A DNA stretch of 64,000 nucleotides, from NCBI GenBank assembly GCA_963977015.1, contig CAXBMO010000021.1, positions 32,001-96,000 of the forward strand, in the 5' to 3' direction. The position numbers were made by a program, and so were the translations under genes. This stretch comes from an uncultured bacterium (lineage in GTDB: Bacteria > Verrucomicrobiota > Verrucomicrobiia > Verrucomicrobiales > DEV007). The notes below the pieces were generated by a model. The model searched no databases. It worked only from the letters and a program-made list of their open reading frames with translations, and was not told where the DNA came from. This document shows positions 3,401 to 64,000 of the stretch, piece after piece; positions within the stretch are counted from its first letter, which is position 1, and each line of letters begins with the position of its first letter.

Positions 3401-4699
3401 ATCGCCGACCAGCTGGGGATTGCGGTGGCGCAGTTTTTGCTCTCGCAGAAAGAAGCCCGCCAAGCTCAGGAATTGGAGAATTCCCGCATTGAAGCCGAGG
3501 CCGCGAATCAGGCAAAAAGCGACTTCCTGGCGAAAATGACGCACGAGCTTCGAACGCCACTCAACGCCATCATCGGTTTTTCCGAAGTGATGAGCCGCGA
3601 TGAAAACCTGAACGAGAGACAGAGCGAGCACCTTGCGATCATCAACAGCAGCGGAGAGCATCTCCTCGGGGTCATCAACGATGTCCTTGAAGTCTCCAAG
3701 ATCGAGGCCGGCAAGGCGGAACTGGTGTTGGAGCGGGTTGATCTGGAAAGCCTGCTCAAATCGGTGTTCGGCATGCTGTCCGTTCAATCCGCCAAGAAGG
3801 AGATTGAATTGAATTTTGCGGCGACCTCAACGCTGCCGAAGTGGGTGGAAGCCGACAAAGGCAAGATTCGCCAAATCCTGATCAACCTCCTCAACAACGC
3901 GATCAAGTTCACCAAACAAGGGGGAGTTTCGCTCCGCGTCGGCGCCAACTACCAACAGCCATTTGGAGACGACGCTACGCGTTATCCGTTGGTTCTCGAG
4001 GTTGAGGTGGAGGATACCGGCATGGGAATCCAGGCGGAAGAACTTCCCAAGCTCTTTCAGAAATTCGTCCAGACGACGAGTGGAAAGTCTTCAAGCCAGG
4101 GCACCGGCCTTGGTCTAACCATCGTCAAAGGATTTACCGAGTTGATGGGAGGGCATGTCTCCGTTTCCAGCCAATTTGGCCAGGGGACGACCTTCTCGGT
4201 CGCGATTCCGATGGTTCAACTGGTCGAGGCTCATTCCTCCAATCCCGAATCAGTCGCCCAAAACCTTCAGGTGGAAGGCCTGGTCACGGGTCACCCATCT
4301 GTCCGGGTTCTGATTGCCGATGATCAGCCGGTCAATCTGCTGCTGTTGCGCAAACTTCTCGAGACTGCCGACTTCGACATTGAGGAAGCGACCGATGGAC
4401 AGGAAGCCGTCGAAAAATGGCGCAGCTATCAACCGCACATCATCTTCATGGATGAGGAAATGCCTCATCTGCGGGGCACGGAAGCCACCCGCATCATTGC
4501 GGCCGAGTCTGGTGGACAAATGCCACCGATCATCTCGTTAACGGCATTTGCCCTGGAGGATCAGCGCATCGCGGCGGCCGAAGCGGGGTGTGCCGATTTC
4601 CTGACCAAACCTTTCAAACGCGACGAGCTCTTCGACATCATCGCGAGGCACTTGCCGGTTCAATACCGGTATCGGGAACCCGCCGCCAAGGCCGCGTAA
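443..4699 (+). CDS. Hybrid sensor histidine kinase (beta-propeller + Y_Y_Y, TM, GAF, HisKA, HATPase, REC)
   Basis: Signal peptide; repeated D..G.IWIGT..GL propeller motifs; TM helix; H-box FLAKMTHELRTPLNAI; N-box NLLNNAIKF; G boxes DTGMGI and GTGLGL; C-terminal receiver (IADD...FMD...KP). Confidence 0.93.
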   Translation: MNLHKLLTINLFVSLAFGFSGLAAGVSESHSRIFFSNLSSVDGLANGEIQQILQDRRGQVWFVHENGLARFDGFELRAINGPNSMHAGGWCHPISALEEDHNGYFWMGTQGGGLIRFHPDSESLLEYRHDPENLDSLSQDIVTAVHRDSQGIIWIGTEEGLNWLDPQTGQIQRVFEHRLNQRSITQIAESNGELWVATRGSGLFLQASNKDWLRVWSEPTEITALEVESDVIWMGTLGSGVFRFDRKSHTSEQFSKDSGLLGHDVLSLQRDPNNGLWVGTTKGLCRLNLETLQWNQYLHHPYDRNSLARGEVQAILRDSRNVLWVGTNRGMVSRHLLQQRWFPHLSNDPENPNSLNENAVFGMAESHDGRIWIGTENGLNRYSPESGDFEHFHQETEAPLDFYIYSILEDRKGRVWLGTRNQGLLRLDSPNEPLRRFGDKSDYVSKPGQTVASLLEDRQGRIWIALSGIGLVSYQDSTGSFQMVGSEFAGPRFINQLHEDWLGRIWIAASDGGLWRFQPAESTFVHYLDLPGVEDELPSNTAFALASSEASRELWIGTRNGGFSSFKPESGEFVHHQRKSPGNPATWKVQGLVVGADNSLWISSDSGLSRFDPASGTFRHFSVRDGLQAPKFHPNALLRTRNGSILAGGTNGFNIIDPRYLPEKHKPAWPLLTDLQLNGETVTPSADGILKKPLPTLMGGPLRLPFDSNLRFAFRFGTLDYAQLDHCQFRYRMAGFEDEWRLAGEDRTVAYPAILPGKYEFQVEMTPDGEHWTGLNHNLQVIVVRPWYQRAWAIAIWILLGLGIIVGGVLTFHRIQLARAKSRNEHLENERNRAKAALARQVQYSMLLERTNTEFRRNLDSTQVFDAALRRLGEHFQTNRCILASLSENADDGLEILAEFIEPDYTSQRDIQLPKSNDPLICAILDSEHPVAIDNISSKTPQLDLDAHSILAVRTAHQKKPNGIILLQQCNGTRCWNDEEIELLESIADQLGIAVAQFLLSQKEARQAQELENSRIEAEAANQAKSDFLAKMTHELRTPLNAIIGFSEVMSRDENLNERQSEHLAIINSSGEHLLGVINDVLEVSKIEAGKAELVLERVDLESLLKSVFGMLSVQSAKKEIELNFAATSTLPKWVEADKGKIRQILINLLNNAIKFTKQGGVSLRVGANYQQPFGDDATRYPLVLEVEVEDTGMGIQAEELPKLFQKFVQTTSGKSSSQGTGLGLTIVKGFTELMGGHVSVSSQFGQGTTFSVAIPMVQLVEAHSSNPESVAQNLQVEGLVTGHPSVRVLIADDQPVNLLLLRKLLETADFDIEEATDGQEAVEKWRSYQPHIIFMDEEMPHLRGTEATRIIAAESGGQMPPIISLTAFALEDQRIAAAEAGCADFLTKPFKRDELFDIIARHLPVQYRYREPAAKAA

Positions 4700-52092: not shown

Positions 52093-52659
52093 ATGAATCC
52101 ACAAACCGAATCTCAGCCCTCCCTTTCTTTCCACCTGATTCCGGCTCAGGCGGGAAAGGAAGGGGGGGCGATTTCGCTTCCGAAGAGCCCGAGCTATCTC
52201 GACCCGGAGACTCTCGAAATCGGAACCGAAAAACCCGCGCCATCCCAGCGCCGCCTGACGTTTGAGCCCCACGGGCGCAACCTCCTGGTGCTGAATCCGG
52301 ACCGCGTCCCGCTACGAGTCAATGACCTGAACGCGCCGCGCGTCCATCTCCTGGAAGAGGGAGACCATCTCCTGATTGGCAATCAACACCTGCTGGCCAC
52401 GGCGCTCTACAACTGCCCGGAGATCGGGCCGCCTCCCAGTGCCAACATCGGCCGCGCCTGCCCGGTCTGTCGCAACACGTTCACCAGTGAGGACCGCGTT
52501 TACCACTGCGGATCTTGTGGAGGCGTTCTTCATCTCGAAGAAGGAGACAACCCGGATGAGTCGCTTCAGTGCGCGCTATCCGTCACCCACTGTCTGACCT
52601 GCAACCATCCCATCAACCTGGAGGAAGGCTACATCACTCAAGGGATCTTCGAGCAATGA
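52093..52659 (+). CDS. FHA-like + RING-like (C4HC3) protein, putative E3 ligase
   Basis: LRVND....VHLLEEGDHLLIG resembles the FHA C-terminal strands; C-x2-C-x12-C-x2-C-x4-H-x12-C-x6-C-x2-C; ATGA overlap with the E1 gene. Confidence 0.7.
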   Translation: MNPQTESQPSLSFHLIPAQAGKEGGAISLPKSPSYLDPETLEIGTEKPAPSQRRLTFEPHGRNLLVLNPDRVPLRVNDLNAPRVHLLEEGDHLLIGNQHLLATALYNCPEIGPPPSANIGRACPVCRNTFTSEDRVYHCGSCGGVLHLEEGDNPDESLQCALSVTHCLTCNHPINLEEGYITQGIFEQ

Positions 52660-53882
52660 TCGCCCAGCCAACACGCCACTTTCTGGAATGCATGCCCCCG
52701 CAAACATCCGGGCGTTTGCCGGATCGAAAGCAGCGGTTCCCCAACCTCATCGGGATGCCGGAAGGTGGACACGAAACGCTCAGCAATTTGAAAATCGCCG
52801 TGGCGGGATGTGGCGCGGTTGGAAGGACGATCGCCATTGACCTCGCCCGACTGGGAATTGCCAGACTCTACCTGATCGACCCGAAAGCCTACAAAGAACA
52901 AAGCCTCCTCACCCAACAGATCATGCCTTCAGAGATTGGCCGTTCAAAGGCTGAGTCGACGGCGCAAGCCTGTGCCGAGATCAGCCGGGACACAGGGGTT
53001 TTCTATGCCTTGGGCCGCTTTGAGACGCTCGATCATCTCGCGCTCAAAGACGTCGATGTGGTGATCATGGCAGGAGACAACCTCAACCTGGAATCTGCCT
53101 TGGGAGAATGGACGTCCCGTTTTCGCATTCCGCTGATCCACGCCGCCGTTCATGGCGAAACCCTGGTCGCTCAAGTCAACGTCTACGCCAATCAAAATGC
53201 GGAGTCTCCCTGCCCATGTTGTGGATGGGGTGCCGCGGAATGGGAGCACCACGCCAGAGAAACCACCTTTGCGTGCGACCCGGGCAACGCGGCGAGCCAG
53301 GACCAACAACCTACCATCGCCACCCAACCCACGACCTCGACACCGAGCCTCTGCGGAATCGCGGCAAACCTCGCGAGCACCCAGATGTTGCGCTACGTCC
53401 TCGGCCTTGGCCGCCCGGTCGGCGATACGTCGTTGCAATTCTGTGCCTACACCAACGCGACCGCGACGAGTCCACTTGCCGTCTCCAAAGCCTGCCCCAC
53501 CAGTCACCTCCCCTACACCCACCACGCCCTTCCAAGCCATTCCCATTACACTCTGAACGATCTCCTCAGGGAATCCGGAAGCCTGGCGCAAGCCACCGAT
53601 CCGCCAACCTTTGAAGTCGGCAACGCGGTTTGGGCGGAAGCTGGCGTTTGCAACTGTGAGGGCGCAACCACCTCCATTGCGCGATTCGTTGCCACCGACG
53701 ACGCGCCCGTTCTCTGCAAGGTCTGCAATACGCCGATTCAGCTGCAACCTTTCTTCACCCATCAACAGGCATCGCTCCATCACCTCGGCGAAGCCCTCGA
53801 TCTCCCGATTTCCGATCTCTGCGATTCGTCCCCCAGGTGGATCGCCATCCGCAACACCGACCACGCCATCCTCTTTTCCTAA
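52656..53882 (+). CDS. ThiF/E1-family ubiquitin-like activating enzyme with C-terminal Cys-rich extension
   Basis: IAVAGCGAVG, LARLGI..L.LID, GRSKAE, GDN, PCPCC, candidate catalytic Cys in TFACDP, ACPTSH, and C-terminal CNC/CKVC. Confidence 0.85.
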   Translation: MIAQPTRHFLECMPPQTSGRLPDRKQRFPNLIGMPEGGHETLSNLKIAVAGCGAVGRTIAIDLARLGIARLYLIDPKAYKEQSLLTQQIMPSEIGRSKAESTAQACAEISRDTGVFYALGRFETLDHLALKDVDVVIMAGDNLNLESALGEWTSRFRIPLIHAAVHGETLVAQVNVYANQNAESPCPCCGWGAAEWEHHARETTFACDPGNAASQDQQPTIATQPTTSTPSLCGIAANLASTQMLRYVLGLGRPVGDTSLQFCAYTNATATSPLAVSKACPTSHLPYTHHALPSHSHYTLNDLLRESGSLAQATDPPTFEVGNAVWAEAGVCNCEGATTSIARFVATDDAPVLCKVCNTPIQLQPFFTHQQASLHHLGEALDLPISDLCDSSPRWIAIRNTDHAILFS

Positions 53883-53890
53883 CCTCTATC

Positions 53891-54520
53891 ATGAACACGG
53901 AACCATTTCTTCTCTCCAAACTCTCCACGTTCAAACTCGATCCGTCCCATCAACGGCTCTTTGATGATGCGATCCTGACCAACGCCGGAAACGCGATTTG
54001 GCGATCGCGAAAGAAGAACGAGATTCACGACTTTCTCGCCCTCGCCCAGGTTTCGAAACGCATCCGCATTCGGACCATCGACCTGTCCGTCGATCTCCGA
54101 ATCCTGTTCGACTTCTTTTGCCCGGTCCCTACCCTTCCCCATGTAGACCAGGATCTGGTGATCCGCGACCGGGCGACGTTGGGCCTCACTTACACGGAAG
54201 ACTCGGTGCGAAACTCGAAACCCGGTTACTCGTTCCTTCAGATCCTTTCGCCGTCCCAGGTTTGGCTTCCCAACGTTTCCGACGAAGAGGTTGGCATTCA
54301 AGCCCTCTGCCTTGGGGCGATTCTTCCTCCCGGCATCCTCATCAAAGAGCTGACCCTCCTCGCCTACGCGGCGTTGACGATGCAGTCCGTTCAACTTGAT
54401 GCCCTGGATTCCGCCGGGGTCATGAACGGAAAATCCGCCCAGTGGTGGAAGATCAACCAACATCGCTTCCCGTTGACTCAGGATAGCTTCATTCCCGCGT
54501 CCAAAGCTCAATCGACATAG
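53891..54520 (+). CDS. E2/UBC-fold ubiquitin-like conjugating enzyme
   Basis: VWLPNV-x8-LCLG corresponds to the UBC HPN...C motif; C-terminal VMNGKSAQWW resembles the UBC PLN..AA..y motif; immediately follows E1. Confidence 0.7.
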   Translation: MNTEPFLLSKLSTFKLDPSHQRLFDDAILTNAGNAIWRSRKKNEIHDFLALAQVSKRIRIRTIDLSVDLRILFDFFCPVPTLPHVDQDLVIRDRATLGLTYTEDSVRNSKPGYSFLQILSPSQVWLPNVSDEEVGIQALCLGAILPPGILIKELTLLAYAALTMQSVQLDALDSAGVMNGKSAQWWKINQHRFPLTQDSFIPASKAQST

Positions 54521-54547: not shown

Positions 54548-56197
54548 TCAGAGCCCCGCCTGGCAGAGGCAGGAGGAGTTGATCTTCAAATCGGCTTTGG
54601 CCCAGATTTTCTCGAACCGTTCCCAAATCGGCTCGGCTTCCTCTTCGCGGTCCTGCAAAGACAAGCTGCGGGACAGTCCGAAGAGCGACCAACCGTTTTC
54701 AGGCCGGCGTTCCAGGTCCTTGCGGTAGACGTCCTCGGCTTCGGCGAAGCGACGTTCCTGCATCAGCGTCGCGCCGAGCAAATGGCGCACCGGCAGGATC
54801 CAGCCGGGCGGTTCGTCGTATTTCAGGTCGTCTTCCAACTCGACAGCTTTCCGCAATTCCGCCAGCGCCGGGTCAACCTTCCCTTCGCGATAAAGAATTT
54901 CGCCTTCCAGCATGTGGCTGGTCAGCTCGAGCACCTCCGAGCAGAAGTTGTTCCCGATGATCCATTCCTCGGGAACCCGCTCCCGCGCCGCGACGAAGTT
55001 GACTTGCTCGGCCCGGGCCAGTTTCGGCTTCCCTTTGGCGGCATGCGCGATTCCACAGGAGGCGTGATGCAGGGCACGGGTGAACGGTAGGTAGTCGGGC
55101 GGCTCCGGCATCGCGAGGACGTCGTCCCAGCGCCCGAACCGGACCAGGACCTCATACGGCATCGCGACGAACGCGTCCGCAAAGAGGGCGTTTTCCTGAA
55201 GCCATGGCGTGGGGATTTCTGCAACCATGGCCCGGATGTGGGTCAGGGCCAGTTCGCTCTGCCCGGTCATCATCGCGGCGTAGGCCAGCATGTGGCGGCT
55301 GTGCGCCATGTAGAGACGGTAGAAATCCGGCCGCTTCCCGGTCGTCTCCCGGTAGGTGAGGTCCGCTCGCACCGCTTTTTCATTGGCCTCGATCGCCTTG
55401 TGCCAGCGACCGCGCAGAACGTCGATGTGCGATGGCATGTGGGTGTTGTGCCCCATGCCCGGCTGCAAGTCGCGCAGCCGATCCGCCGCCGCGTCCGCCA
55501 GTTCCGGGTTCGGCCCGGCTTCGACCGCGTGAATCAAAAGGTGATTCGCCAGGGGATGGTTCGGGTCGAGTTCGAGCACCGCATTCAGGATCGCGATGAT
55601 CTCGTCAGTGCCGGGTTGCGGCTCCTTGTCCAGGGTCCAGAGATCCCAGGGCCGCAGGTCCATGAGCGACTCGGCGAAAAGCGCGCCGACGTCGGCGTCC
55701 TCGCGATGGTTGTCCCACACCTCGCGCATCGCTTCGGCATAGGCAGCATCGAGCGGGGTGCGGTCTTCCGGATGCGGATCGGCGTAGCGGTGACCGAGCG
55801 CCTCGATCAGAGCTTGCTCGACCACGGTGCAGCGGGAGGCGTGTTGCTGCGCCAGGGTCAGTTCTTTCCAGGCGAGATCGGCGCGAGCCGCCGGGACCAT
55901 CGGGTTGTTGATGTGCGGTCCGCTGGCCAGCGAGATGGCCCAGTGCGCCATGGCGCATTCCGGATCGAGACGAGCAGCTTCCTGGAAGGAACGGATCGCC
56001 TCGTCGTGGTTGAAGGCGTAGAGGAACGCCAGTCCCTGGTCGAAGTAACGCTGCGCGGATTCCGAGTTGGTGGTGACGTCGCGTCCGTGCGGACCAAGCC
56101 CCTCGAAGAGAGGAACCTCAGCCGTGCCAAGAGCCACAGTCCAAACCCAGGCGAGCACCACGATCGTCCGGTGACAGAAGAGAATTGGAGCATTCAT
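54548..56197 (-). CDS. Exported TPR-repeat protein
   Basis: Signal peptide; AQRYFDQGL...YAFNHDEA.RSF, HPLANH.LIHA.E, HMPSHI and PENGWSLFGL. Confidence 0.8.
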   Translation of the reverse strand: MNAPILFCHRTIVVLAWVWTVALGTAEVPLFEGLGPHGRDVTTNSESAQRYFDQGLAFLYAFNHDEAIRSFQEAARLDPECAMAHWAISLASGPHINNPMVPAARADLAWKELTLAQQHASRCTVVEQALIEALGHRYADPHPEDRTPLDAAYAEAMREVWDNHREDADVGALFAESLMDLRPWDLWTLDKEPQPGTDEIIAILNAVLELDPNHPLANHLLIHAVEAGPNPELADAAADRLRDLQPGMGHNTHMPSHIDVLRGRWHKAIEANEKAVRADLTYRETTGKRPDFYRLYMAHSRHMLAYAAMMTGQSELALTHIRAMVAEIPTPWLQENALFADAFVAMPYEVLVRFGRWDDVLAMPEPPDYLPFTRALHHASCGIAHAAKGKPKLARAEQVNFVAARERVPEEWIIGNNFCSEVLELTSHMLEGEILYREGKVDPALAELRKAVELEDDLKYDEPPGWILPVRHLLGATLMQERRFAEAEDVYRKDLERRPENGWSLFGLSRSLSLQDREEEAEPIWERFEKIWAKADLKINSSCLCQAGL

Positions 56198-56419
56198 CGA
56201 TCGAATGAAGGGTTAGTGGTTTGATTGCCGTGAAGCGGAGCCCAAGTGAAGCCCAACGTCCTCACACGGTAAAAAATTACCCCCGCCGTGCGTGATTACC
56301 AGACAATTCGACAAAAAAGCCTTGTCACCATGCGCCGCTCAACGCCCCGCCGTCCCAGTCGGATCCCCCCACCGATCGAAGGGACTTGTTCGTCCCCAGT
56401 TTTCGTTGATCATAACACG

Positions 56420-57910
56420 ATGATCGAAAAAACCCTTTGCGCAACGATCCTGCTCGCGGCTCTGAGTTCGACACTTTGGGGCACCGATCACTTCCTCACG
56501 ATTGCCGGCGGTTACGAGCCTTCCGGAAATCAGGTCTCTCTGGAAAAAAACGTGGTCTTCTACCGGAACGTGCTCGCTCGGGCTGGATTTGCCGATTCGC
56601 CCCACGCAGTTTACTTCGCCAACGGCCTTTCTGAGCATCGCGATGTTCAATACGAGCCCAGCGAATCGCAGGTTCCCCGAGCCCACGAGCTGATGGCGAA
56701 GCTTTTCGGAACCACCGAACATCAATCGCTTTCCTATCGAAAACACAAGTTGACCAGCCTTGCCGGCGCAACGACGCCGGAAAACCTGGCAAAGTGGTTC
56801 GACGATCACGCCTCAACTTTTCAAGCCGGCGATCGCCTGATCCTCTACGCCACCGCGCATGGCGGGAAGAGCAACGACAAGAAAGACGACGGCAACACCA
56901 GACTCTATCTCTGGAACAAGAGGACGGTGAGCGTAAGTCAGCTTCAGCCCCATCTGGAGAAGCTCCCGGCAAAGGTCGGCGTAACCTTGATCATGGCTCA
57001 ATGTTACTCGGGAGGCTTCGCCAACTCCGTGTTCAACAATGCCAATAAAGAAGGTGGCGACTTCGACCGGCCCGTGTGCGGTTTCTTTTCGACGGTGCCC
57101 AGCCGGCAAGCCGCAGGATGCACCCCGGACATTGACGAGGAAGATTACGACGAGTTCAGCAGCCACTTCTGGGCTGCCATCCATGGTGAAACCCGCGTCG
57201 GACAACCGGTCGAATCCGCCGACTACGATGAGAACGGTGCCGTCAGTTTCGAGGAAGCCTTCGCCTACACCGTAATCACTTCGCAGAACATTGATATTCC
57301 AATTAGGACGAGCGGGGTGTACCTGCGGGCGCGCAGCAAATACCGCAAAGACCAACCCGACAACGAGCAATTGTTCCCGCAGAAATCCGACTACGAGAGT
57401 GTGCTCGCGTTGGCGAACCCGGTCGAAGCAGCCATGCTCGAAGCCTTGTCGAGTCAGCTCAATCTCACCAACGCCCAACGCTATGCGGAGTCCGAAACCG
57501 CCGCCAACCAGATCGAAGAAAAGCGCAAGGAGTTGAAGGCTCAATCCGACGAGAAGAAAAAGCGGATCGAACAACTGAAAAAGACCCTGCAGCGCCGCGC
57601 CCGCAACCAGTGGCCTGAGCTTTCGAACATCCTAAGCCCAACGGCCGTGCGATTGCTGACCGAACAAGCCGAAGCATTCATCGCCTTCGTCGAGTCTCAA
57701 CCGGAGTTCGCGGAATGGGTAGCGCTGCAATCCGAGCGCGACGCCATCGAGGAAGAACGTTTCGTCCTGGAAAAAGAATGGGCCAAGCACATCCGCTTCC
57801 TGAGAACCCACAACAACGTGATTTTGGCGAAGAACCTGGTCACGCTGGCCGATCAAGATTCCATCGCACGTTACCACGCCCTCGTCGATGCCGAGCGAAA
57901 AGCGCTTTGA
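56420..57910 (+). CDS. Exported clan CD (caspase/legumain-like) peptidase with EF-hand-like loop and coiled coil
   Basis: LILYATAHGG and LIMAQCYSGGF give a His/Cys dyad; DYDENGAVSFEE; signal peptide after ATG 56420. Confidence 0.7.
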   Translation: MIEKTLCATILLAALSSTLWGTDHFLTIAGGYEPSGNQVSLEKNVVFYRNVLARAGFADSPHAVYFANGLSEHRDVQYEPSESQVPRAHELMAKLFGTTEHQSLSYRKHKLTSLAGATTPENLAKWFDDHASTFQAGDRLILYATAHGGKSNDKKDDGNTRLYLWNKRTVSVSQLQPHLEKLPAKVGVTLIMAQCYSGGFANSVFNNANKEGGDFDRPVCGFFSTVPSRQAAGCTPDIDEEDYDEFSSHFWAAIHGETRVGQPVESADYDENGAVSFEEAFAYTVITSQNIDIPIRTSGVYLRARSKYRKDQPDNEQLFPQKSDYESVLALANPVEAAMLEALSSQLNLTNAQRYAESETAANQIEEKRKELKAQSDEKKKRIEQLKKTLQRRARNQWPELSNILSPTAVRLLTEQAEAFIAFVESQPEFAEWVALQSERDAIEEERFVLEKEWAKHIRFLRTHNNVILAKNLVTLADQDSIARYHALVDAERKAL

Positions 57911-57934
57911 TCCATTCCGCCGCCCGCCCCCGCA

Positions 57935-59593
57935 ATGTGCATCTTCCGAATCCACGTATTTCTCGCGTATTGCTTGCTCGCTCCGCCTCTTTTTTGCGGC
58001 GCCGAACGTCTGCCGAACGGAATCGAGCTTCAGGAACCGTGGCCGCCATATCGGGAGGCGAAGGAGGTCCTATCCGGCGAACCGATGCCGGTTGCCTACC
58101 TGACAACCCCGCCCGGCATCATCCCGATTGACCTCGGACGCCAGTTGCTGGTCGACGACTTTCTGATTCAATCCAGCACCTTGAAGCGAACGTTTCATCG
58201 TCCGGATTATCACCCCTCAAATCCCGTGTTCCGTCCTGAGAAGGCGTGGGAGAAGACCAAGGATCGCGCGTTTGCCGCGCCCTACAGCGATGGCGTTTGG
58301 TATGATCCAGACGAGAAGATCTTCAAGATGTGGTATCGAGCAGAAACCGGTTGGACTTGCTTGGCGACATCACCCGACGGGCTTTGTTGGGAACGCCCGG
58401 CGCTGGAGCAACTGCCCGGTGCCAACGCTTTGTATCGGTCGAATCGGGACGCCGTTTCCGTTTGGTTGGACCATGGCGCCGGCGATCCGTCGCGCCGATT
58501 CGTAGCATTCGAGGCAAGCTGGATCAAACCCGCGCACCGGCTCCACCTGCGCTACTCACCGGACGGTCGACAATGGACGGCCCCGCTGGCCATCTCCGGC
58601 CCGTCTTGGGATCGTTCTTCCGTTTTCTGGAATCCCTTTCGCAACGTCTGGGTCGCGAGTGTTCGCGGGCACGACCGGATGAAACCCGATCCCGTTCACC
58701 GGTCTCGAAACTACCACGAAGGCGCAACTCCCGAGGCCGTGCTCGCATGGACCGAACACACCGATGAGGTTGCCCAAGGCAAAGACGCGTCTGGCGGTCT
58801 GCAGCCATGGGTCGCCGCCGACCGTCTTGACCCGCGCCATCCCGACCCGCGATTTCGCAACAACGACCCCCAACTCTACAACCTCGACGTCTTCCCATAT
58901 GAGAGCCTACTTGTTGGACTGTTCACGATCTGGCAGGGCCCGGACAACGCGACCTGTAAAGACCTCGGCATCCACAAGCGAAACGAGGTTCTTGTCGGAT
59001 TCACGCGAGACGGATTTCATTGGGACCGGACCAACCGCAAACCGTTTCTGCCCGTCAGCGATGTTTCCAAAGCGTGGAATGCCGGCAATGTTCAGTCGGT
59101 TTGCGGCGGCTGCGTGATCGTCGGCGACCTCCTTTATTTTTATTGCTCAGGCAGGACGATGGATCCGTCCGACATCACCTCCACCGGCCTCGCGACGTTA
59201 CGTCGAGACGGTTTCGCCTCGCTCGATGCGAATGGAGACGGCGGCGTCATGACCACACGACCGCTTACCTTTACCGGGAAACACCTCTTCGTGAATCTGG
59301 CAGCTGCAGACGGTGAGTTGCGTGTCGAAGCTTTGGATCAAACCGGCAGCGTGATCGCACCGTTTACCCTGGAAAATGGTCAACCCATCTCCGGCGACGC
59401 AGCCGCAATCCCAGTGAAATGGAAAGGCATAACCGATCTATCTCAGCTCACCGGCATCCCCGTTCGCTTTCGGTTTACACTGAAGAACGGCGCCCTGTAT
59501 TCGTTCTGGGTTAGCCCCAATGAAGCTGGAGCGAGCACCGGCTACGTCGCCGCTGGCGGCCCCGGATTCGGCAGTGATCACGACATCCCGTAA
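57935..59593 (+). CDS. Exported beta-propeller glycoside hydrolase-like protein (GH32/43-like)
   Basis: RQLLVDDFLI; Asp-box-like SPDG..W repeats; GLATLRRDGFASL; signal peptide. Confidence 0.7.
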   Translation: MCIFRIHVFLAYCLLAPPLFCGAERLPNGIELQEPWPPYREAKEVLSGEPMPVAYLTTPPGIIPIDLGRQLLVDDFLIQSSTLKRTFHRPDYHPSNPVFRPEKAWEKTKDRAFAAPYSDGVWYDPDEKIFKMWYRAETGWTCLATSPDGLCWERPALEQLPGANALYRSNRDAVSVWLDHGAGDPSRRFVAFEASWIKPAHRLHLRYSPDGRQWTAPLAISGPSWDRSSVFWNPFRNVWVASVRGHDRMKPDPVHRSRNYHEGATPEAVLAWTEHTDEVAQGKDASGGLQPWVAADRLDPRHPDPRFRNNDPQLYNLDVFPYESLLVGLFTIWQGPDNATCKDLGIHKRNEVLVGFTRDGFHWDRTNRKPFLPVSDVSKAWNAGNVQSVCGGCVIVGDLLYFYCSGRTMDPSDITSTGLATLRRDGFASLDANGDGGVMTTRPLTFTGKHLFVNLAAADGELRVEALDQTGSVIAPFTLENGQPISGDAAAIPVKWKGITDLSQLTGIPVRFRFTLKNGALYSFWVSPNEAGASTGYVAAGGPGFGSDHDIP

Positions 59594-59813: not shown

Positions 59814-59843
59814 CCTCGCTCACAAATACGCCATTTCGGTGTG
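59814..59843 (+). promoter_or_regulatory. Shared upstream motif CCTCGCTCACAAA-N13-TGTG (operon B)
   Basis: Matches 52045-52074; ends 31 nt before ATG 59875. Confidence 0.65.
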
Positions 59844-59874
59844 CTCTATTGCTGAACGTTCCACCCACCAGAAC

Positions 59875-60690
59875 ATGGCAACGACCGCACAAGCCCCCCA
59901 CCCACTAACCGAAGCAGCGCGCAGAACGCGGACGCTCGAGGCGGTTGGTTTCAAGAAAAGCGGGAATGATTTCAAGAAAGGCAGAACCAGTTTTTCCAAC
60001 CGAAAAGGCTGGCTCACCCTCCGCTCCACGTTTCCGAAAACCGCCGAGCCGACCGAAGGGAAACTTGGAAAACCGGGGCTTTGGAAGAAGACCCCAACAA
60101 CCCCGGCCAAACAGCATTTCACCCTGCCGGAAACCATTCTAGCGAACAACCGCGCCGCGTCGCCCGACGACGACGATCCAACCCTGCGGGCATGTGTGGA
60201 CTGGGCGCTGGCGACCCGAAACGGGAGACCACCGAAAGCCCCACAATTGCCATCCGCCGAAGACGTCGAGAACTGGCTCGGTTCCAGAACCATCCAAATT
60301 GGTGACATCGTTCGCCAGATCGAAGTCAATCATCTTGAAAGCCAGTTTTCCCTGCGGGTGACGATCGTCAACGACATCCCCAGGGAACGCACCCCCGGCA
60401 CCGAGTGGCTTGCCGGCCTGATCGAAGACGCCCAGGAACAATGGAAACTGGCCAGAATCGAATTCACCAACCAGGACGATGACCACGATGTGGCGATCGC
60501 CGAAATCGACCTCACCGGAGCCCCATCCCCCATCCTCGAATCACTTTTCCTAACCAGTGTGGACACCCTCAGATGGATTGCCGCCTCACTGGTTCCCACG
60601 GCAGAGTTCCTGGTTGGCAACGACGCAAAGTCGTCGCCAGCCCTGAGCGAAACCACCATCCAGGGTCAGCAATCCTCAACCAACATCTAA
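59875..60690 (+). CDS. Hypothetical protein; C-terminal half YbjN/T3SS-chaperone-like
   Basis: FSLRVTI...WLAGLIEDAQEQWKLARI...AIAEIDL followed by a long amphipathic helix; first gene of operon B. Fold call is tentative. Confidence 0.55.
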   Translation: MATTAQAPHPLTEAARRTRTLEAVGFKKSGNDFKKGRTSFSNRKGWLTLRSTFPKTAEPTEGKLGKPGLWKKTPTTPAKQHFTLPETILANNRAASPDDDDPTLRACVDWALATRNGRPPKAPQLPSAEDVENWLGSRTIQIGDIVRQIEVNHLESQFSLRVTIVNDIPRERTPGTEWLAGLIEDAQEQWKLARIEFTNQDDDHDVAIAEIDLTGAPSPILESLFLTSVDTLRWIAASLVPTAEFLVGNDAKSSPALSETTIQGQQSSTNI

Positions 60691-60702
60691 ATACAAAACG
60701 TT

Positions 60703-61029
60703 ATGGTTACTGCAACAGAACCGTCCCCGACAACGGACGCCAAGCCCCGGCAAGGCGGATCCGCTGATCTTGGGGGCAACGACAGGTTTAGCCTGACTGC
60801 GATTGATGTGACCGGCAGCCACGAGTTGGAAGCGCCGAGCATTGATCGAAGCACCCCTGCGGGTGCAGTCGCGAACGCTTTTGCGAATCGCATGGACTTG
60901 CCAACCAACGTCCCTTGGGGACTCCGGAACGATGAGACCGCCGCTTATCTCTCAGACGATGAGCCAATCGGCGATCAAATTGAAACGGGTGCCCGAGTCG
61001 TTGTGACTCCGAAAAGTCACCTCGGCTAA
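60703..61029 (+). CDS. Ubiquitin-like (beta-grasp) modifier ending in Gly
   Basis: Strand-strand-helix-strand pattern FSLTAID / ELEAPSI / TPAGAVANAFANRMDLP / WGLRND / YLSDDEPIGD / IETGARVVVTP, ending KSHLG; lies next to JAB. Confidence 0.75.
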   Translation: MVTATEPSPTTDAKPRQGGSADLGGNDRFSLTAIDVTGSHELEAPSIDRSTPAGAVANAFANRMDLPTNVPWGLRNDETAAYLSDDEPIGDQIETGARVVVTPKSHLG

Positions 61030-61135
61030 GGACAACACGGCCCAACAACTTCGGAAACCGGCGGTATGTAAGTAGTTAAGAGGATTGAGGGTACGGATGG
61101 GCACGGTGACGTGTGCGGGAGGCACACAGAAACCG

Positions 61136-61165
61136 CCTCCTTGCGCTGGGTGGAGCGCAAGGAGG
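61136..61165 (+). other. Perfect 12-bp stem-loop between the Ubl and JAB genes
   Basis: CCTCCTTGCGCT-gggtgg-AGCGCAAGGAGG with no U-tract; a smaller GTGTGC/GCACAC hairpin lies at 61111-61127. Confidence 0.75.
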
Positions 61166-61212
61166 ATTGGCCGGGCCCAAAACAGAAATCCAACCACGAA
61201 ACAATCACCCCC

Positions 61213-62346
61213 ATGAAACAAGCTGTTCCAACATCACCAACTCCCAAGACCTCGGAACCCGGCCTCACCCTGGTTATCCGAAGCGAGGATGACGGTGTGC
61301 TTCTCGCCCGGGAAGCGGTGCGTGAAGAAGACTTCACCGAAGCCAAGACCGAGGCGTTTCGCGAGCTGTTTCTTCGTCAAGGCATCCTCGAGGTTTCCCT
61401 TGCAGACCTTCCGGTTCGCCTCCGTGCAATCCCCGTCAAGGATGGCCCGCCAAATCGCTGCCGTGGTTACGCCTTTGAAAAAACCGTTTCAGCCGGTTCT
61501 GGAAAGAAGCGCACGGTTTTCACCATGAACAGCCTTGAGCGCGTCGCGACGCGGGTCGGTAATCGGCTCCTGGAATCCGGAGCGCTCGAGTCCGGCGAGG
61601 ATTTCGTCTTTGAACTGGAGTCCGGAGCCCCCACCGCTCAAGCCGCACCCGATCCCTTTGCGGATATACTCGGACCGACCATTCGAAAGTCAGAGATGCA
61701 CTTTCTCCAGGCCGAACTTTCTCCGCTTCTCCAGAACGCCCGGAGCGTGAACGAAGCGGATCCTGATGTCTTTCCGGTTTTCTATACTGAGGAAGCCGTT
61801 CAACAGGCTGAAGCCCATAGCCGCAAGGGTTCGCCGGCTGATCCGAATTACGAAAGCGGAGCCATCCTGGCCGGACCGATCTGCTCGTGTCCCGTTAGCG
61901 GAGAATTTTTCATCGTGGTATGCAAAGTCCAGGAAGTGACCGAGGCCGACCAAACCCTGGTCTCCTTGGAGTATTCCGGCGAAAGCTGGGCCCGGATTCA
62001 GAAGAACATCCGCAAAGAACAAACCGAGAACCCGGCCATCCGAATTCTTGGCCAGGCCCACGGCCACAACTTTCTGCCAAACAACGGCGAAACCTGCGCG
62101 GATTGCCCGACCAAACCGGTCTGCGATGTCGACAACCTGTTTGTCAGTTCCGACGACAAGAACTGGACCCGGGCGGTGTTCAGCCAACAACCCTGGCAGC
62201 TCTGCCACATCTTTGGCCTGACCGCCCGCAACGATAGAATCAACGCCCTCTTCAGCCTCCACGACGCACGGCTGATCCGCAGAGGTTATCACATCATTCC
62301 CGACTTTGACGCCACCGCCCACCCCACGATCTCCGTTCTCCAATAA
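61213..62346 (+). CDS. JAB/MPN+ (JAMM) metallo-isopeptidase with N-terminal extension and Cys insert
   Basis: YESGAILAG (catalytic Glu), RILGQAHGH (HxH) and SSDD (SxxD), followed by F.QPWQL..I. Confidence 0.8.
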   Translation: MKQAVPTSPTPKTSEPGLTLVIRSEDDGVLLAREAVREEDFTEAKTEAFRELFLRQGILEVSLADLPVRLRAIPVKDGPPNRCRGYAFEKTVSAGSGKKRTVFTMNSLERVATRVGNRLLESGALESGEDFVFELESGAPTAQAAPDPFADILGPTIRKSEMHFLQAELSPLLQNARSVNEADPDVFPVFYTEEAVQQAEAHSRKGSPADPNYESGAILAGPICSCPVSGEFFIVVCKVQEVTEADQTLVSLEYSGESWARIQKNIRKEQTENPAIRILGQAHGHNFLPNNGETCADCPTKPVCDVDNLFVSSDDKNWTRAVFSQQPWQLCHIFGLTARNDRINALFSLHDARLIRRGYHIIPDFDATAHPTISVLQ

Positions 62347-62389
62347 GCCCCCAAATTCAATCCCCCTAACTTGACCTCATTCACCGGCT

Positions 62390-64000
62390 ATGAAAGCTAA
62401 TCAACCCAAGGAAAAAGCGGACTCCGTCGCCACGATGCTGGCAGATCCTGAGTTCCCAGTCGAGGAACGCCGAAAGTTCCTCCAAATGATCGTGCAATCC
62501 AACGATGAGTCGGCTCTCAATGCCGTTATCGAAGGGCTCGAAGGAAAGAAAGGCGGCGACGTCTACGCGAAACGCATCAAGAAGCTCGAGGCGATCATGA
62601 AAGAGCTTGAAGAAGGCCCGCAACGCCCCGCGATGTTCATTGCCATGACCCCGGCAGCAGACGAAAGGATCCAATACGCCCAGGTGATGCTGGATGATGG
62701 CAATCAAGCCTACAGCGTCGTCCCCGACCCTGAGCTTGCCAAGTCGCTGAAACTTGGCGACCCCATTGTGATGGATGGTCGCGGTCGCGCAATATTGCGT
62801 CGAGGCGCCCACAACCTGGGGATTGGCGAAGAAGCGAAGTTGGAGCGCGTGATCGACGAACGCCGAGTCGAAGTCTCGATGCGCGGCCAGGAACGATTCG
62901 TCTTCTTTGCATCCTCGAAAATCGCGGATCAACTCAAGAACGACGAGCTCGAAGCAGGTTCGATGCTCGTCGTCAACCCACGCCAGTTCATGGTCTTTGA
63001 TTCGATCCCCAAAGTCGATGGGCTTTCCCACTTTCAATATCTGGAGCGGCGTCCGGTTTCCAAAGTCGTCGTCGACCGCGACATCGGAGATCCGCCACCC
63101 ATCATTGAGAAGATCACCCAGTTCGTTCGCGCGGAGATGATCGCCCCTGAAGTGCAGCGGCGTTATCAGTTGAACCGCTGCCTGACGACGCTTCTCGACG
63201 GCGTTCCCGGCTCCGGCAAGACCCTCGCGATCGCCGGAATCGAACGGAAGATCTACGAAGTGATGAGCGAAGTCACCGACGTTCCCATCGATGAACTCCC
63301 TCCCCGGGTCTTCCGCCTTCAGATGAGCCGAATCCTCAACATGTATCTCGGCGAAAGCGATCGAAACCTGGAACGCTTCTTCACGGAAGTCGAGCAGATG
63401 GCTGCGGAACCCTTTGTTTGTCCGGATGGACGCGAGATCCAGCTTCCCGTCATCGCGGTGCTGGAAGAGATCGACGGTCTGGCTCGTCATCGGGGTCAGG
63501 ATTCCATTCACGATCGAATCCTCACGACCGCCCTCCAGAACCTCGATACGGCCCGTCCTGAACTGAAGGAGAACCTCATCATTTACTTGGGCACAACGAA
63601 CGAGATTCAGCAGGTCGACGGTGCGTTTCTCCGCCGGATCGGCGCAACGGTCGAACGTTTTGGCCGACTGAAGCGCAGCGGCTTTGAAGCCGTGCTCGAA
63701 AAGCAGATTGATGGTTTGCCGATCATCCCGTTGAACGGCAGCCGCGATCCCAAGACGATCGAAAAGGCAACGATCAACGCGATCACCTCCTGGCTCTACT
63801 CGCCGAACGGATCGGACAAAGGCCTGGTTGAGCTCACGTTCACGGGTTCCTCCAATCCTGAGATTCGCTACCGTCGCGACTTCGTCACCGGTGCTCTGGT
63901 CAATCGTGCGGTTCAGCAGGCCAGCATCGAAGCCAGCCAGGCAGAACATCGCGGCACGGAAGAGTGCGGCATTTCCTGTGAACTTCTCGTTCGCGAGATC
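62390..64000 (+). CDS. ARC/Mpa-type proteasomal AAA+ ATPase (3'-truncated by the window, 537 codons visible)
   Basis: Hand translation: coiled coil (KRIKKLEAIMKELEEGP); two OB-like blocks (LKLGDPIV...GEEAKLERVID...LEAGSMLVV...FDSIP); Walker A GVPGSGKT; pore loop LNMYLGES; Walker B VIAVLEEID; GTTN...DGAFLRR; LVELTF...RYRRDFVTGA, matching the Mpa FLEVTY...YFKDFNSGA block from memory. Confidence 0.85.
   Translation, partial: MKANQPKEKADSVATMLADPEFPVEERRKFLQMIVQSNDESALNAVIEGLEGKKGGDVYAKRIKKLEAIMKELEEGPQRPAMFIAMTPAADERIQYAQVMLDDGNQAYSVVPDPELAKSLKLGDPIVMDGRGRAILRRGAHNLGIGEEAKLERVIDERRVEVSMRGQERFVFFASSKIADQLKNDELEAGSMLVVNPRQFMVFDSIPKVDGLSHFQYLERRPVSKVVVDRDIGDPPPIIEKITQFVRAEMIAPEVQRRYQLNRCLTTLLDGVPGSGKTLAIAGIERKIYEVMSEVTDVPIDELPPRVFRLQMSRILNMYLGESDRNLERFFTEVEQMAAEPFVCPDGREIQLPVIAVLEEIDGLARHRGQDSIHDRILTTALQNLDTARPELKENLIIYLGTTNEIQQVDGAFLRRIGATVERFGRLKRSGFEAVLEKQIDGLPIIPLNGSRDPKTIEKATINAITSWLYSPNGSDKGLVELTFTGSSNPEIRYRRDFVTGALVNRAVQQASIEASQAEHRGTEECGISCELLVREI

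Follow-up and report, generated by a model that had tools for sequence, protein, structure and literature searches.

The DNA analysed here is a stretch of 64,000 nucleotides (the window) that corresponds to positions 32001-96000 of contig 21 in a 51-contig genome draft of an uncultured bacterium of the phylum Verrucomicrobiota. At its 3' end lies a gene for an AAA+ ATPase that resembles the proteasomal ATPase Mpa/ARC. This ATPase stands at the centre of a conserved eleven-gene cassette, which we found at about 50 metagenomic loci and in which candidate ubiquitin-like modifiers (Ubls) are accompanied by E1-, E2-, RING- and JAB-like proteins (Table 1).

The ATPase frame starts at the ATG at position 62390 and stays open for 537 codons up to the window end. 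In the parent contig the stop follows 144 bases further on, so that the complete protein has 584 residues (positions 2390-4144 of locus L002). An earlier note on this DNA, made from the letters alone, had proposed the frame, and it is real; it was absent from the default list of open reading frames (ORFs) because it runs off the window end. The antisense frame of 522 aa at 62381-63949 is a shadow frame and matches no Pfam family. The three upstream neighbours that the same note had called a Ubl, a JAB protein and the 59875 protein proved to be genuine conserved genes, listed below as Ubl-A, JAB-A and U3, respectively.

Domain architecture and motor motifs of the ATPase

The full-length protein follows the domain order of Mpa. 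Pfam places the AAA domain at residues 268-419 (E 7.9e-15) and the C-terminal OB domain of proteasomal ATPases at residues 149-207 (E 1.2e-6), and the NCBIfam model of ARC, pup_AAA (TIGR03689), aligns residues 64-535 with its positions 29-473 of 512. The best solved relative by sequence is Mpa of M. tuberculosis (E 1.1e-19). A profile of 32 family members matches the same protein with an E-value of about 1e-45, positions 67-572 of the profile falling on Mpa residues 86-588 of 609, whereas VAT and Cdc48 match it over the AAA part only (223-450). The AlphaFold model, with a predicted local distance difference test (pLDDT) score of 84.9 and a predicted template-modelling score (pTM) of 0.62, contains helices at 8-18 and 24-36, a long 36-residue helix at 40-75, two OB blocks in the form of beta-barrels at 78-138 and 147-205, an AAA module from about residue 228, and an Mpa-type C-terminal domain containing strands. 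When this model was submitted to Foldseek, ranks 1-10, 16, 17 and 22 were all Mpa chains (E 1e-29 to 1e-24), and the next entries listed, from rank 31, were Rpt subunits of the 26S proteasome at about 5e-18. The collinearity with actinobacterial Mpa (helix, tandem OB blocks, AAA domain) that had been read from the sequence is thus borne out by Pfam, by TIGR03689, by the profile and by the structure model.

The N-terminus, on the other hand, had been misjudged. It had been described as carrying an extra helical segment of about 55 aa; because Mpa residue 86 is the counterpart of profile position 67, it is in fact about 19 residues shorter than that of Mpa. Some 76 residues precede the first OB block, and two short helices of lower predicted accuracy (pLDDT 64-74) stand before the long one. 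This region differs from its Mpa counterpart in sequence and is not an addition to it.

Motif conservation was counted in an alignment of 32 family sequences. To judge by these residues, the motif set of a classical-clade AAA+ unfoldase of the Mpa, PAN and Rpt type is complete. Walker A extends from G271 to T278, with its lysine K277 in 32/32 sequences, and the sensor-1 residue N404 is equally invariant (32/32). The pore loop is Y319-L320-G321 in the window's protein and [W/Y/L]-[L/F/V]-G in the family, the glycine being kept in 31/32. Two deviations from Mpa that had been noticed in the single sequence hold throughout the family. Walker B reads EEID where Mpa has DEMD, with E359 and E360 each present in 32/32 and Glu thus taking the place of the usual Asp, and in the second region of homology VDGAFLRRIG takes the place of the DPAILRPGR of Mpa, with arginines R415 and R416 (F-L-R-R-I-G) again each in 32/32.

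The C-terminus carries no sign of proteasome docking. GQYL/HbYX is the C-terminal motif through which such ATPases dock to the proteasome, and the penultimate tyrosine of a docking tail of this type occurs in 0/32 family C-termini; the window's protein ends in L-Q-A-H. The family does share a conserved C-terminal stretch, R-R-I-x-Q-P-x-x-L-P-x-E-L-x-R.

A subfamily distinct from canonical ARC

On TIGR03689, whose cut-off is 504.75 bits, the part of the ATPase encoded in the window scores 98.5 bits, and the genome scan gave 102.5 bits. Relatives and sister-clade proteins, 21 in all, stay under 128 bits or give no match at E 1e-20, and two outliers reach about 290 bits. Near-canonical ARCs also exist in the phylum, in 10 of its 401 sampled genomes, and score 413-467 bits on the same model. 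In a tree of 57 rows, the window's ATPase family forms a clade of 26 rows with a Shimodaira-Hasegawa-like approximate likelihood ratio test (SH-aLRT) support of 99. Together with two sister clades it makes up a group of 42 rows (SH-aLRT 94) that stands apart from the seven near-canonical ARCs (SH-aLRT 100). The ATPase therefore represents a distinct subfamily, as had been suspected from the sequence, and not a canonical ARC: of five features that characterize the latter, it has the domain layout and departs in the other four, namely score, docking tail, gene context and clade. Nor does it nest in canonical ARC with pup, prcBA and pafA genes downstream; what follows it are genes for Ubl-like, E2-fold, Prok-JAB and ThiF/E1 proteins.

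The two sister clades, of 7 and 9 rows, consist of Mpa-like ATPases that score 78-128 bits on the ARC model where they match it (P0198, P0200, P0202, P0209, P0226, P0228, P0232, P0235-P0237, P0244, P0247, P0248, P0258, P0262 and P0264). They may belong to operons that combine a Ubl with Pup.

An exhaustive library search with the ATPase returned 124 clusters at E≤1e-30. The source names attached to family matches include Verrucomicrobiae, Verrucomicrobiales, Planctomycetota and Deltaproteobacteria, and the closest genome record that carries a relative is a metagenome-assembled genome of Verrucomicrobiota. Within the phylum, two of the 401 sampled genomes carry the family, that of the window being one of them. 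A family ATPase with 38% identity is also found in the last 2.2 kb of a 45-kb IMG/VR contig classed as viral (L089), where a homologue of E1-B, cut by the contig end, lies directly upstream of the ATPase in a gene order unlike that of the window. This is too little to call the locus viral.

Organization and conservation of the cassette

In the cassette, the genes of module A (RING-like protein, E1-A, E2 candidate, U3, Ubl-A and JAB-A, in this order) precede the ATPase, and those of module B (Ubl-B, E2-fold protein, JAB-B and E1-B) follow it on the same strand with overlaps or short gaps. Scanning metagenome contigs for the pattern of a 12-row alignment gave 66 loci, about 55 of which hold true family members. 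Linkage was then counted by tblastn of the window's neighbours in 57 loci, near-duplicates among them, with each gene assessed only at loci that have enough flanking sequence (Table 1). Ubl-B remains next to the ATPase even where the gene order has changed (L045, L047 and L058). Immediately upstream of the ATPase there is no pup, dop or pafA gene, as the earlier note had stated. The flanking genes beyond the cassette vary from locus to locus.

Table 1. Genes of the cassette and of the insertion that splits it, with their linkage to the ATPase gene
Feature	Position and strand	Basis or remark	Loci with linkage / loci with enough flank
RING-like zinc-finger protein (F8), candidate E3	52093..52659 (+)	Prok-RING_1	13/14
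E1-like adenylating enzyme E1-A (F6), 408 aa	52656..53882 (+)	Pfam ThiF, E 2.3e-23	14/16
Probable E2 (F9)	53891..54520 (+)	motif	17/20
TPR protein	54548-56197 (-)	Pfam	
540-aa protein	56288-57910	N-terminal hydrophobic stretch read as signal peptide; very weak caspase-like match, E 0.0036	
552-aa protein	57935-59593	similar hydrophobic stretch; two paralogues elsewhere in genome	
U3, conserved protein	59875..60690 (+)	alignment	19/22
Ubl-A (U4), candidate Ubl, 108 aa	60703..61029 (+)	alignment, 13 sequences	22/25
Probable JAB/JAMM peptidase JAB-A (U5)	61213..62346 (+)	directly upstream of ATPase	32/37
Mpa/ARC-like AAA+ ATPase, 584 aa	62390..64000 (+), to 144 bases beyond window end		
Ubl-B, candidate Ubl, 103 aa	first gene downstream of ATPase, beyond window	alignment, 21 sequences	45/49
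E2-fold protein, 299 aa	starts 4 bases before Ubl-B gene end	structure model	39/41
JAB-B			32/32
E1-B			29/30

In the window itself the cassette is interrupted. The copies of F8, F6 and F9 in this genome were located at 52093-54520, and three unrelated genes (54548-59593) separate them from U3, leaving all cassette frames intact; in other loci the genes for the E2 candidate and U3 are adjacent. At other loci none of the three intervening genes was seen next to the ATPase, bar a TPR match of 33% identity that L040 and its duplicate L053 have 7 kb downstream.

Some loci lack module A (L045/L044/L046 and L047). In a FastTree phylogeny of 47 ATPases they nest among loci that possess it. The eleven-gene arrangement therefore looks ancestral for the family, and we read the missing module as a secondary loss or relocation and not as the mark of a minimal ancestor.

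Several loci show further genes. In the loci without module A, Ubl-B and the ATPase are preceded by two extra genes (L045:2246-3963), whose products of 319 and 253 aa have no Pfam match; in a single-linkage BLAST cluster these proteins fall together with E2-fold proteins and ATPases, and kinship to the E2-fold protein is no more than possible. An extra gene separates the ATPase from Ubl-B in some loci, for example L027 (11764-12981), and gaps at the same place occur in L035 and L043. The 405-aa protein of L027 has faint AAA (E 0.054) and AAA-lid (E 0.009) matches and may be a second ATPase-like protein. Downstream of the window's own cassette, the opposite strand carries a NifU-like gene (L002:6964-7470), and 3.6 kb past the window end there is a gene for a 1159-aa leucine-rich-repeat and Roc (LRR-Roc, ROCO-like) protein with Roc, Ras and Arf GTPase matches (L002:7598-11077), followed by DUF3239 and GNAT genes. 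The LRR-Roc gene is not conserved beside the cassette elsewhere.

Proteins of the two modules

In module A, Prok-RING_1 was the best match in 5/7 members of the RING-like F8 family that were scanned. The start codon ATG of E1-A shares bases with the stop codon of the RING-like gene (ATGA), and the C-terminal part of E1-A is rich in cysteine. The next protein, F9, has a conserved motif, W-H-A-N-V ... Q-x-L-C-L-G, in which N146, C158, L159 and G160 are invariant; its resemblance to the HPN motif and catalytic cysteine of UBC proteins makes F9 a probable E2. U3 contains no conserved cysteine. It has conserved motifs PGLWK, RQGEL and LTGAP, and a weak lead (ESM Atlas features 0.85, template-modelling score below 0.5) points to a peptide-binding fold like that of YbjN and type III chaperones.

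Ubl-A carries an invariant motif, P-K-[TS]-H-L-G, which forms the very C-terminus in 8/13 sequences, and we take the protein for a ubiquitin-like modifier whose C-terminal glycine is exposed. JAB-A begins with a domain of about 200 aa that has no recognised fold. Counted from the GTG at 61111, its invariant residues in 19 sequences are E248, H317-x-H319 and S346-x-x-D349, and a CxxC...C insert lies between HxH and SxxD. ESM Atlas features link it at 0.95 to clusters in which 14-49% of the members carry Prok-JAB or JAB domains, and give a lead to fvmJAB_N, a family that presumably belongs to systems of the FtsH-vWA-MoxR type.

In Ubl-B of module B, G95-E96-K97-G98 is invariant and is followed by 0-25 variable residues, from which we read the protein as a precursor that would be trimmed to a C-terminal glycine. 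Its N-terminal 45 residues or so are less conserved, apart from a Glu at position 4 that hardly varies, and contain glycine-rich stretches. The profiles of Ubl-A and Ubl-B show no significant similarity to each other. With their conserved C-terminal glycines, both proteins are candidate beta-grasp modifiers.

The structure model of the E2-fold protein has a pLDDT of 84.4; C157 is invariant and C142 is present in at least 90% of the sequences. A wide VIA-align search with this model returned E2/UEV chains in 21 of the 50 rows listed (Z 3.5-5.2), with bacterial Cap2 and BubB at the head of them. Profile comparison of the E2-fold protein with F9 was not significant. JAB-B is recognised by Pfam as Prok-JAB (E 6.6e-10) and has the HxH-x7-S-xx-D spacing, while E1-B is a protein of 259 aa with a single ThiF domain (Pfam ThiF, E 2.6e-15). 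Among NCBIfam models, PRTRC protein A gave the only match of JAB-B (47.5 bits, cut-off 101.8), and PRTRC ThiF matched E1-B with 30.4 bits (cut-off 144.75). In a PADLOC search, E1-B weakly matched the CBASS E1-E2 models (up to 23 bits) and BilD (13.6 bits, E 0.005), and the Ubl-B, E2-fold and JAB-B proteins had no BilABCD match.

Search for a proteasome in the carrier genomes

The earlier note had proposed to look for 20S subunits in the genome. None was found: PF00227, the family of 20S and HslV subunits, has no match in the 51 contigs of the window's genome, which is 95.3% complete, and neither PF03136 (the Pup ligase/Dop family) nor an ARC above the TIGR03689 cut-off was found anywhere in it. 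Of the 401 genomes just one more is a carrier (95% complete), and it gave no PF00227 match either. As a positive control, the same family was present in 5/5 of the near-canonical-ARC genomes tested, and no more than a few kb from the ARC gene in three. The search thus works, and the phylum does hold an ordinary proteasome system. We take these ARC and 20S loci to be the UBact-type locus of Gram-negative phyla, a name for which a search found no paper. The same search also finds PF00227 in E. coli, B. subtilis and eight other control genomes, and the window's genome shows no match to HslV either. Within the cassette, no peptidase is conserved besides the two JAB genes.

A proposed proteasome-independent unfoldase for Ubl-tagged proteins

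The most likely explanation, to which we assign a probability of about 0.55, is that the ATPase serves as the motor in a system independent of the proteasome, in which proteins are first tagged with ubiquitin-like modifiers and afterwards unfolded. JAB-B would trim Ubl-B and expose the glycine of GEKG, E1-B would adenylate the trimmed protein and the E2-fold protein would transfer it to targets. Module A would do likewise with Ubl-A, with a RING-type specificity factor added and with U3 possibly serving as a peptide-binding adaptor. The ATPase itself would form a hexamer through its OB rings and recognise the tag with its N-terminal helices, after which it would engage a loose end, plausibly the glycine-rich N-terminal tail of Ubl-B (about 45 residues), and thread the conjugate through its pore by means of the aromatic-hydrophobic-Gly loop. 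At the pore, JAB-A might strip the tag, as Rpn11 does on the 26S proteasome; it is the position of its gene that suggests such an Rpn11-like deubiquitinase.

The strict adjacency of Ubl-B to the ATPase, which is kept despite reordering of the other genes, suggests that Ubl-B is what the ATPase reads as a tag, and the loose N-terminal segment of this protein is a plausible initiation site. Since no 20S/HslV gene was found and a docking tail is missing, the tagged proteins would be unfolded, extracted or disassembled and not handed over to a proteasome. A precedent exists in C. glutamicum, which has no prcBA and in which, according to the searchable passages of PMC8223512, pupylation mobilises iron from ferritin without degradation. 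We adopted a non-degradative outcome for the cassette by analogy with the ARC of that species.

The earlier note had suggested that the N-terminus of the ATPase may be adapted to a folded Ubl or an adaptor in place of Pup. The link to a Ubl stands firmly by gene context. As to the binding itself, a complex of two copies of ATPase residues 1-215 with Ubl-B was predicted in three runs along with three controls. The score was 0.47 (runs 0.50, 0.47 and 0.47), compared to 0.02 for the best control; agreement between the runs covers at least 94% of contacts, and the partner reaches a pLDDT of at least 67. In the calibration set, 116/157 solved complexes and 2/215 mismatched pairs reached the mark, and at scores of 0.60 or under only 18/157 solved complexes, together with both mismatches, did so. 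The prediction thus lends weak support to binding of Ubl-B by the N-domain.

A number of observations weigh against this explanation, and most of them concern the identity of the partners. The RING-like protein matches Prok-RING_1 with an E-value of 1.5e-4 and 22.1 bits, under the cut-off of 29.1, which makes it a soft assignment. F9 has no Pfam match and no PDB profile match, its motif being what the E2 reading is drawn from. JAB-A gives no Pfam JAB match even at E≤1 and no PDB sequence match, and its comparison with JAB-B by hhalign is not significant (E 0.17). Ubl-A has no Pfam or PDB sequence match, neither Ubl-A nor Ubl-B resembles a known Ubl by sequence (the best match is ubiquitin 2mi8 at E 1.4), and Ubl-B and the E2-fold protein have no credible PDB profile match. 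The unassigned neighbours of the window's own cassette obtained no usable match from Pfam, NCBIfam or PADLOC, and the same holds for Pfam with members of the RING-like, F9, U3, Ubl-A, JAB-A, Ubl-B and E2-fold families taken from other loci. The E2-fold model aligns with bacterial Cap2 at Z 5.2 and with BubB at Z 5.0, a range rated as middling that again makes for a soft assignment, and Foldseek finds no match for it at E≤0.001. The remaining points concern the ATPase and its surroundings. AAA proteins usually carry Asp at the first acidic position of Walker B, and that the ATPase is active with Glu in its place is an assumption, which we make because this Glu is invariant in the family. The predicted complex with Ubl-B is weak by the calibration of the method and came without an interface. 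The 57-row tree, built without PAN, Rpt, Cdc48 and actinobacterial ARC rows, concerns the separation from the near-canonical ARCs and not the point at which the family joins the classical AAA tree. As both carrier genomes are 95% complete, the 20S absence means that it was not found, and a partner protease may be encoded elsewhere. Finally, the sequencing runs listed for positions 59839-64000 are DNA runs from marine and related metagenomes, with no RNA run among them.

Alternative explanations

The same machine could serve antiviral or anti-mobile-element defence in the manner of Bil, with the Ubls tagging proteins of the invader and the ATPase extracting or unfolding them. We regard this as a serious though distinctly less probable reading, and it is compatible with the unfoldase mechanism. 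The spread of the family is sparse and patchy (2/401 genomes of its own phylum, with further members in Planctomycetota and Deltaproteobacteria), and an IMG/VR contig carries one relative at its end. Module B shares the Bil gene order Ubl-E2-JAB-E1, as that order is given in the searchable text of PMC11601596; there are the weak PADLOC matches of E1-B; and mobile Ubl operons are regarded as conflict systems by Aravind and colleagues in the available passages of PMC3417536 and PMC7159879. However, no cassette protein has a convincing PADLOC match, and 59 flanking ORFs from other loci are mostly metabolic or housekeeping (sulfatases, glycosidases, sigma factors, GNAT), with one phage integrase and no known defence genes. 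Neither the 72,556 plasmid records nor the 50,697 phage records gave a tblastn match at E 1e-20, and the G+C content of the cassette, 0.566-0.587, is close to that of the genome (0.56, standard deviation 0.023 in 5-kb windows). If the ATPase instead capped a degradative machine, it would feed tagged proteins to a peptidase outside the proteasome family, encoded elsewhere or so far unrecognised, and would dock to it via the conserved C-terminal tail. That tail has no assigned role, the nearest fold relatives, Mpa, PAN and Rpt, are all protease activators, and Kaur et al. (PMC7159879) argue in the text open to searching that the Ubls of Ubl-plus-Pup operons are tied to degradation of the target. 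We nevertheless consider a degradative machine unlikely, given that the JAB genes are the only conserved peptidases of the cassette, that PF00227 was not found in either carrier genome and that HbYX/GQYL is absent from the whole alignment.

Two further explanations have much less in their favour. In one, the ATPase serves the conjugation machinery itself, dismantling Ubl oligomers or E2-Ubl assemblies or presenting the Ubl-B precursor to JAB-B. Its gene does lie between the two modules and adjoins Ubl-B in 45 of 49 loci, Ubl-B appears to be made as a tailed precursor, and Ubls of other bacterial operons oligomerise, as stated in the searchable part of PMC11601603. Yet a full unfoldase, with its tandem OB rings and its intact pore loop, would be costly for the handling of a precursor, and the JABs of Bil and Bub process their Ubl without an ATPase in the account available from PMC11601596, so that such a role appears quite improbable. 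The other explanation, that the ATPase is an ordinary ARC/Mpa and belongs to a Pup- or UBact-proteasome system with its partner genes at other places in the genome, was rejected and retains hardly any likelihood. The best matches by sequence and by fold are to Mpa and the genome is a draft; against this stand the score at a fraction of the cut-off, a clade apart from near-canonical ARC, a genome in which neither PF00227 nor PF03136 was found, and a strict linkage to E1, E2, JAB and Ubl genes instead.

Comparison with known systems

What makes the cassette highly interesting is the combination of a proteasome-type unfoldase and ubiquitin-type tagging in bacteria in which no proteasome gene was found. 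The family joins an OB-AAA motor of the proteasome type to putative E1, E2, RING and JAB proteins and two candidate Ubls. To our knowledge, Mpa/ARC is known only with Pup-type tags. Bacterial Ubl conjugation has recently been worked out for Bil, Bub and CBASS Cap2/3, and no dedicated unfoldase is described there in the text open to searching. No account of a cassette with an Mpa-like ATPase and E1, E2, JAB and Ubl genes and without Pup turned up in the searchable full-text literature, including PMC11601596, PMC10557695, PMC11601603, PMC1779556, PMC3417536, PMC3239186 and PMC7159879, supplements being outside the scope of the search. Three questions become testable with it: how an AAA+ ring reads a folded Ubl tag in bacteria, whether JAMM deubiquitination is coupled to translocation outside eukaryotes and archaea, and of what use tag-directed unfolding is when the product is not degraded. 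The analysis also defines protein families that have no Pfam entry, namely U3, Ubl-A, Ubl-B, the E2-fold protein and the E2 candidate F9.

Mpa of M. tuberculosis (PDB 5kwa, 5kzf, 7px9 and 7ljf) has the same full-length domain order as the ATPase. Identity between the two is about 18-22%, however, and the ATPase reaches about one fifth of the family cut-off. Walker B begins with DE in Mpa and with EE in the ATPase, ILRPGR is replaced by FLRRIG, the GQYL/HbYX tail is missing, and the shorter N-terminal region is unrelated in sequence. The near-canonical ARC of Verrucomicrobiota shares the phylum and the overall architecture, but it scores about four times higher than the roughly 100 bits of the window's family, occurs in 10 genomes rather than two and was accompanied by a 20S proteasome in all five genomes tested, whereas none was found with the family described here. 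The ARC of C. glutamicum, as presented in the searchable passages of PMC8223512, works as an unfoldase on tagged proteins without prcBA and to a non-degradative end, and is the functional model that we adopted. Its tag is Pup, attached by PafA, whereas the tags of the cassette would be of the beta-grasp type and come with candidate E1, E2, RING and JAB proteins.

Module B shares the gene order of Bil, the Ubl precursor is presumably trimmed by the JAB protein in both (PMC11601596, as far as its searchable text goes), and Cap2 and BubB are among the best E2-type matches of the E2-fold model. Bil, Bub and type II CBASS Cap2/Cap3, as described in the searchable text, contain no AAA+ unfoldase, whereas the cassette has one, along with a second module that includes a RING-like protein. 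BilD consists of an inactive adenylation domain, an active adenylation domain and a Cys domain; E1-B, in contrast, is short and has ThiF only. The weak matches of JAB-B and E1-B to PRTRC (the ParB-related, ThiF-related cassette of plasmids and islands) both lie under their cut-offs, no ParB and no other PRTRC protein was matched in the cassette, and the ATPase occurs in none of the plasmid records searched. The tri-ligase Ubl sets of the FtsH-vWA-MoxR type combine JAB, E1, prokaryotic RING and E2, as module A appears to do, according to the available text of Kaur et al. 2020 (PMC7159879). Unlike them, the cassette has no conserved vWA, MoxR, FtsH, EAD1 or caspase effector. The account nearest to the cassette is one sentence in the searchable text of that paper, on Ubl-plus-Pup operons, which links such Ubls to ARC-type processing. 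The cassette differs from those operons in that Pup, Dop and PafA are missing and in that the Pup module is replaced by a second Ubl module.

The broadest comparison is with the base and lid of the 26S proteasome (Rpt1-6 and Rpn11) and with Cdc48/p97. The cassette differs from the 26S proteasome in that its motor is encoded by a single gene, is presumably homohexameric and of the Mpa type, and has no 20S core, and in that its Ubls are not detectably ubiquitin-like by sequence. It is similar in that an OB-AAA or AAA unfoldase is likewise combined with a probable JAMM deubiquitinase and with E1/E2/RING tagging. We offer, as a tentative proposal that is more doubtful than the unfoldase reading itself, that the cassette is a free-standing bacterial counterpart of the ubiquitin and 19S/Cdc48 logic without a proteolytic core. 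Two unrelated tags, one written by E1, E2 and RING and the other by an E1 and E2 resembling those of Bil and PRTRC, would converge on one Mpa-type unfoldase that carries an Rpn11-like JAB at its pore, and one tag may recruit the substrate while the other supplies an unstructured initiation tail. If this is true, tag-directed unfolding became linked to JAMM deubiquitination in bacteria either without any connection to, or earlier than, its coupling to the 20S core. The cassette would also provide a compact single-subunit model for the pairing of Rpt and Rpn11.

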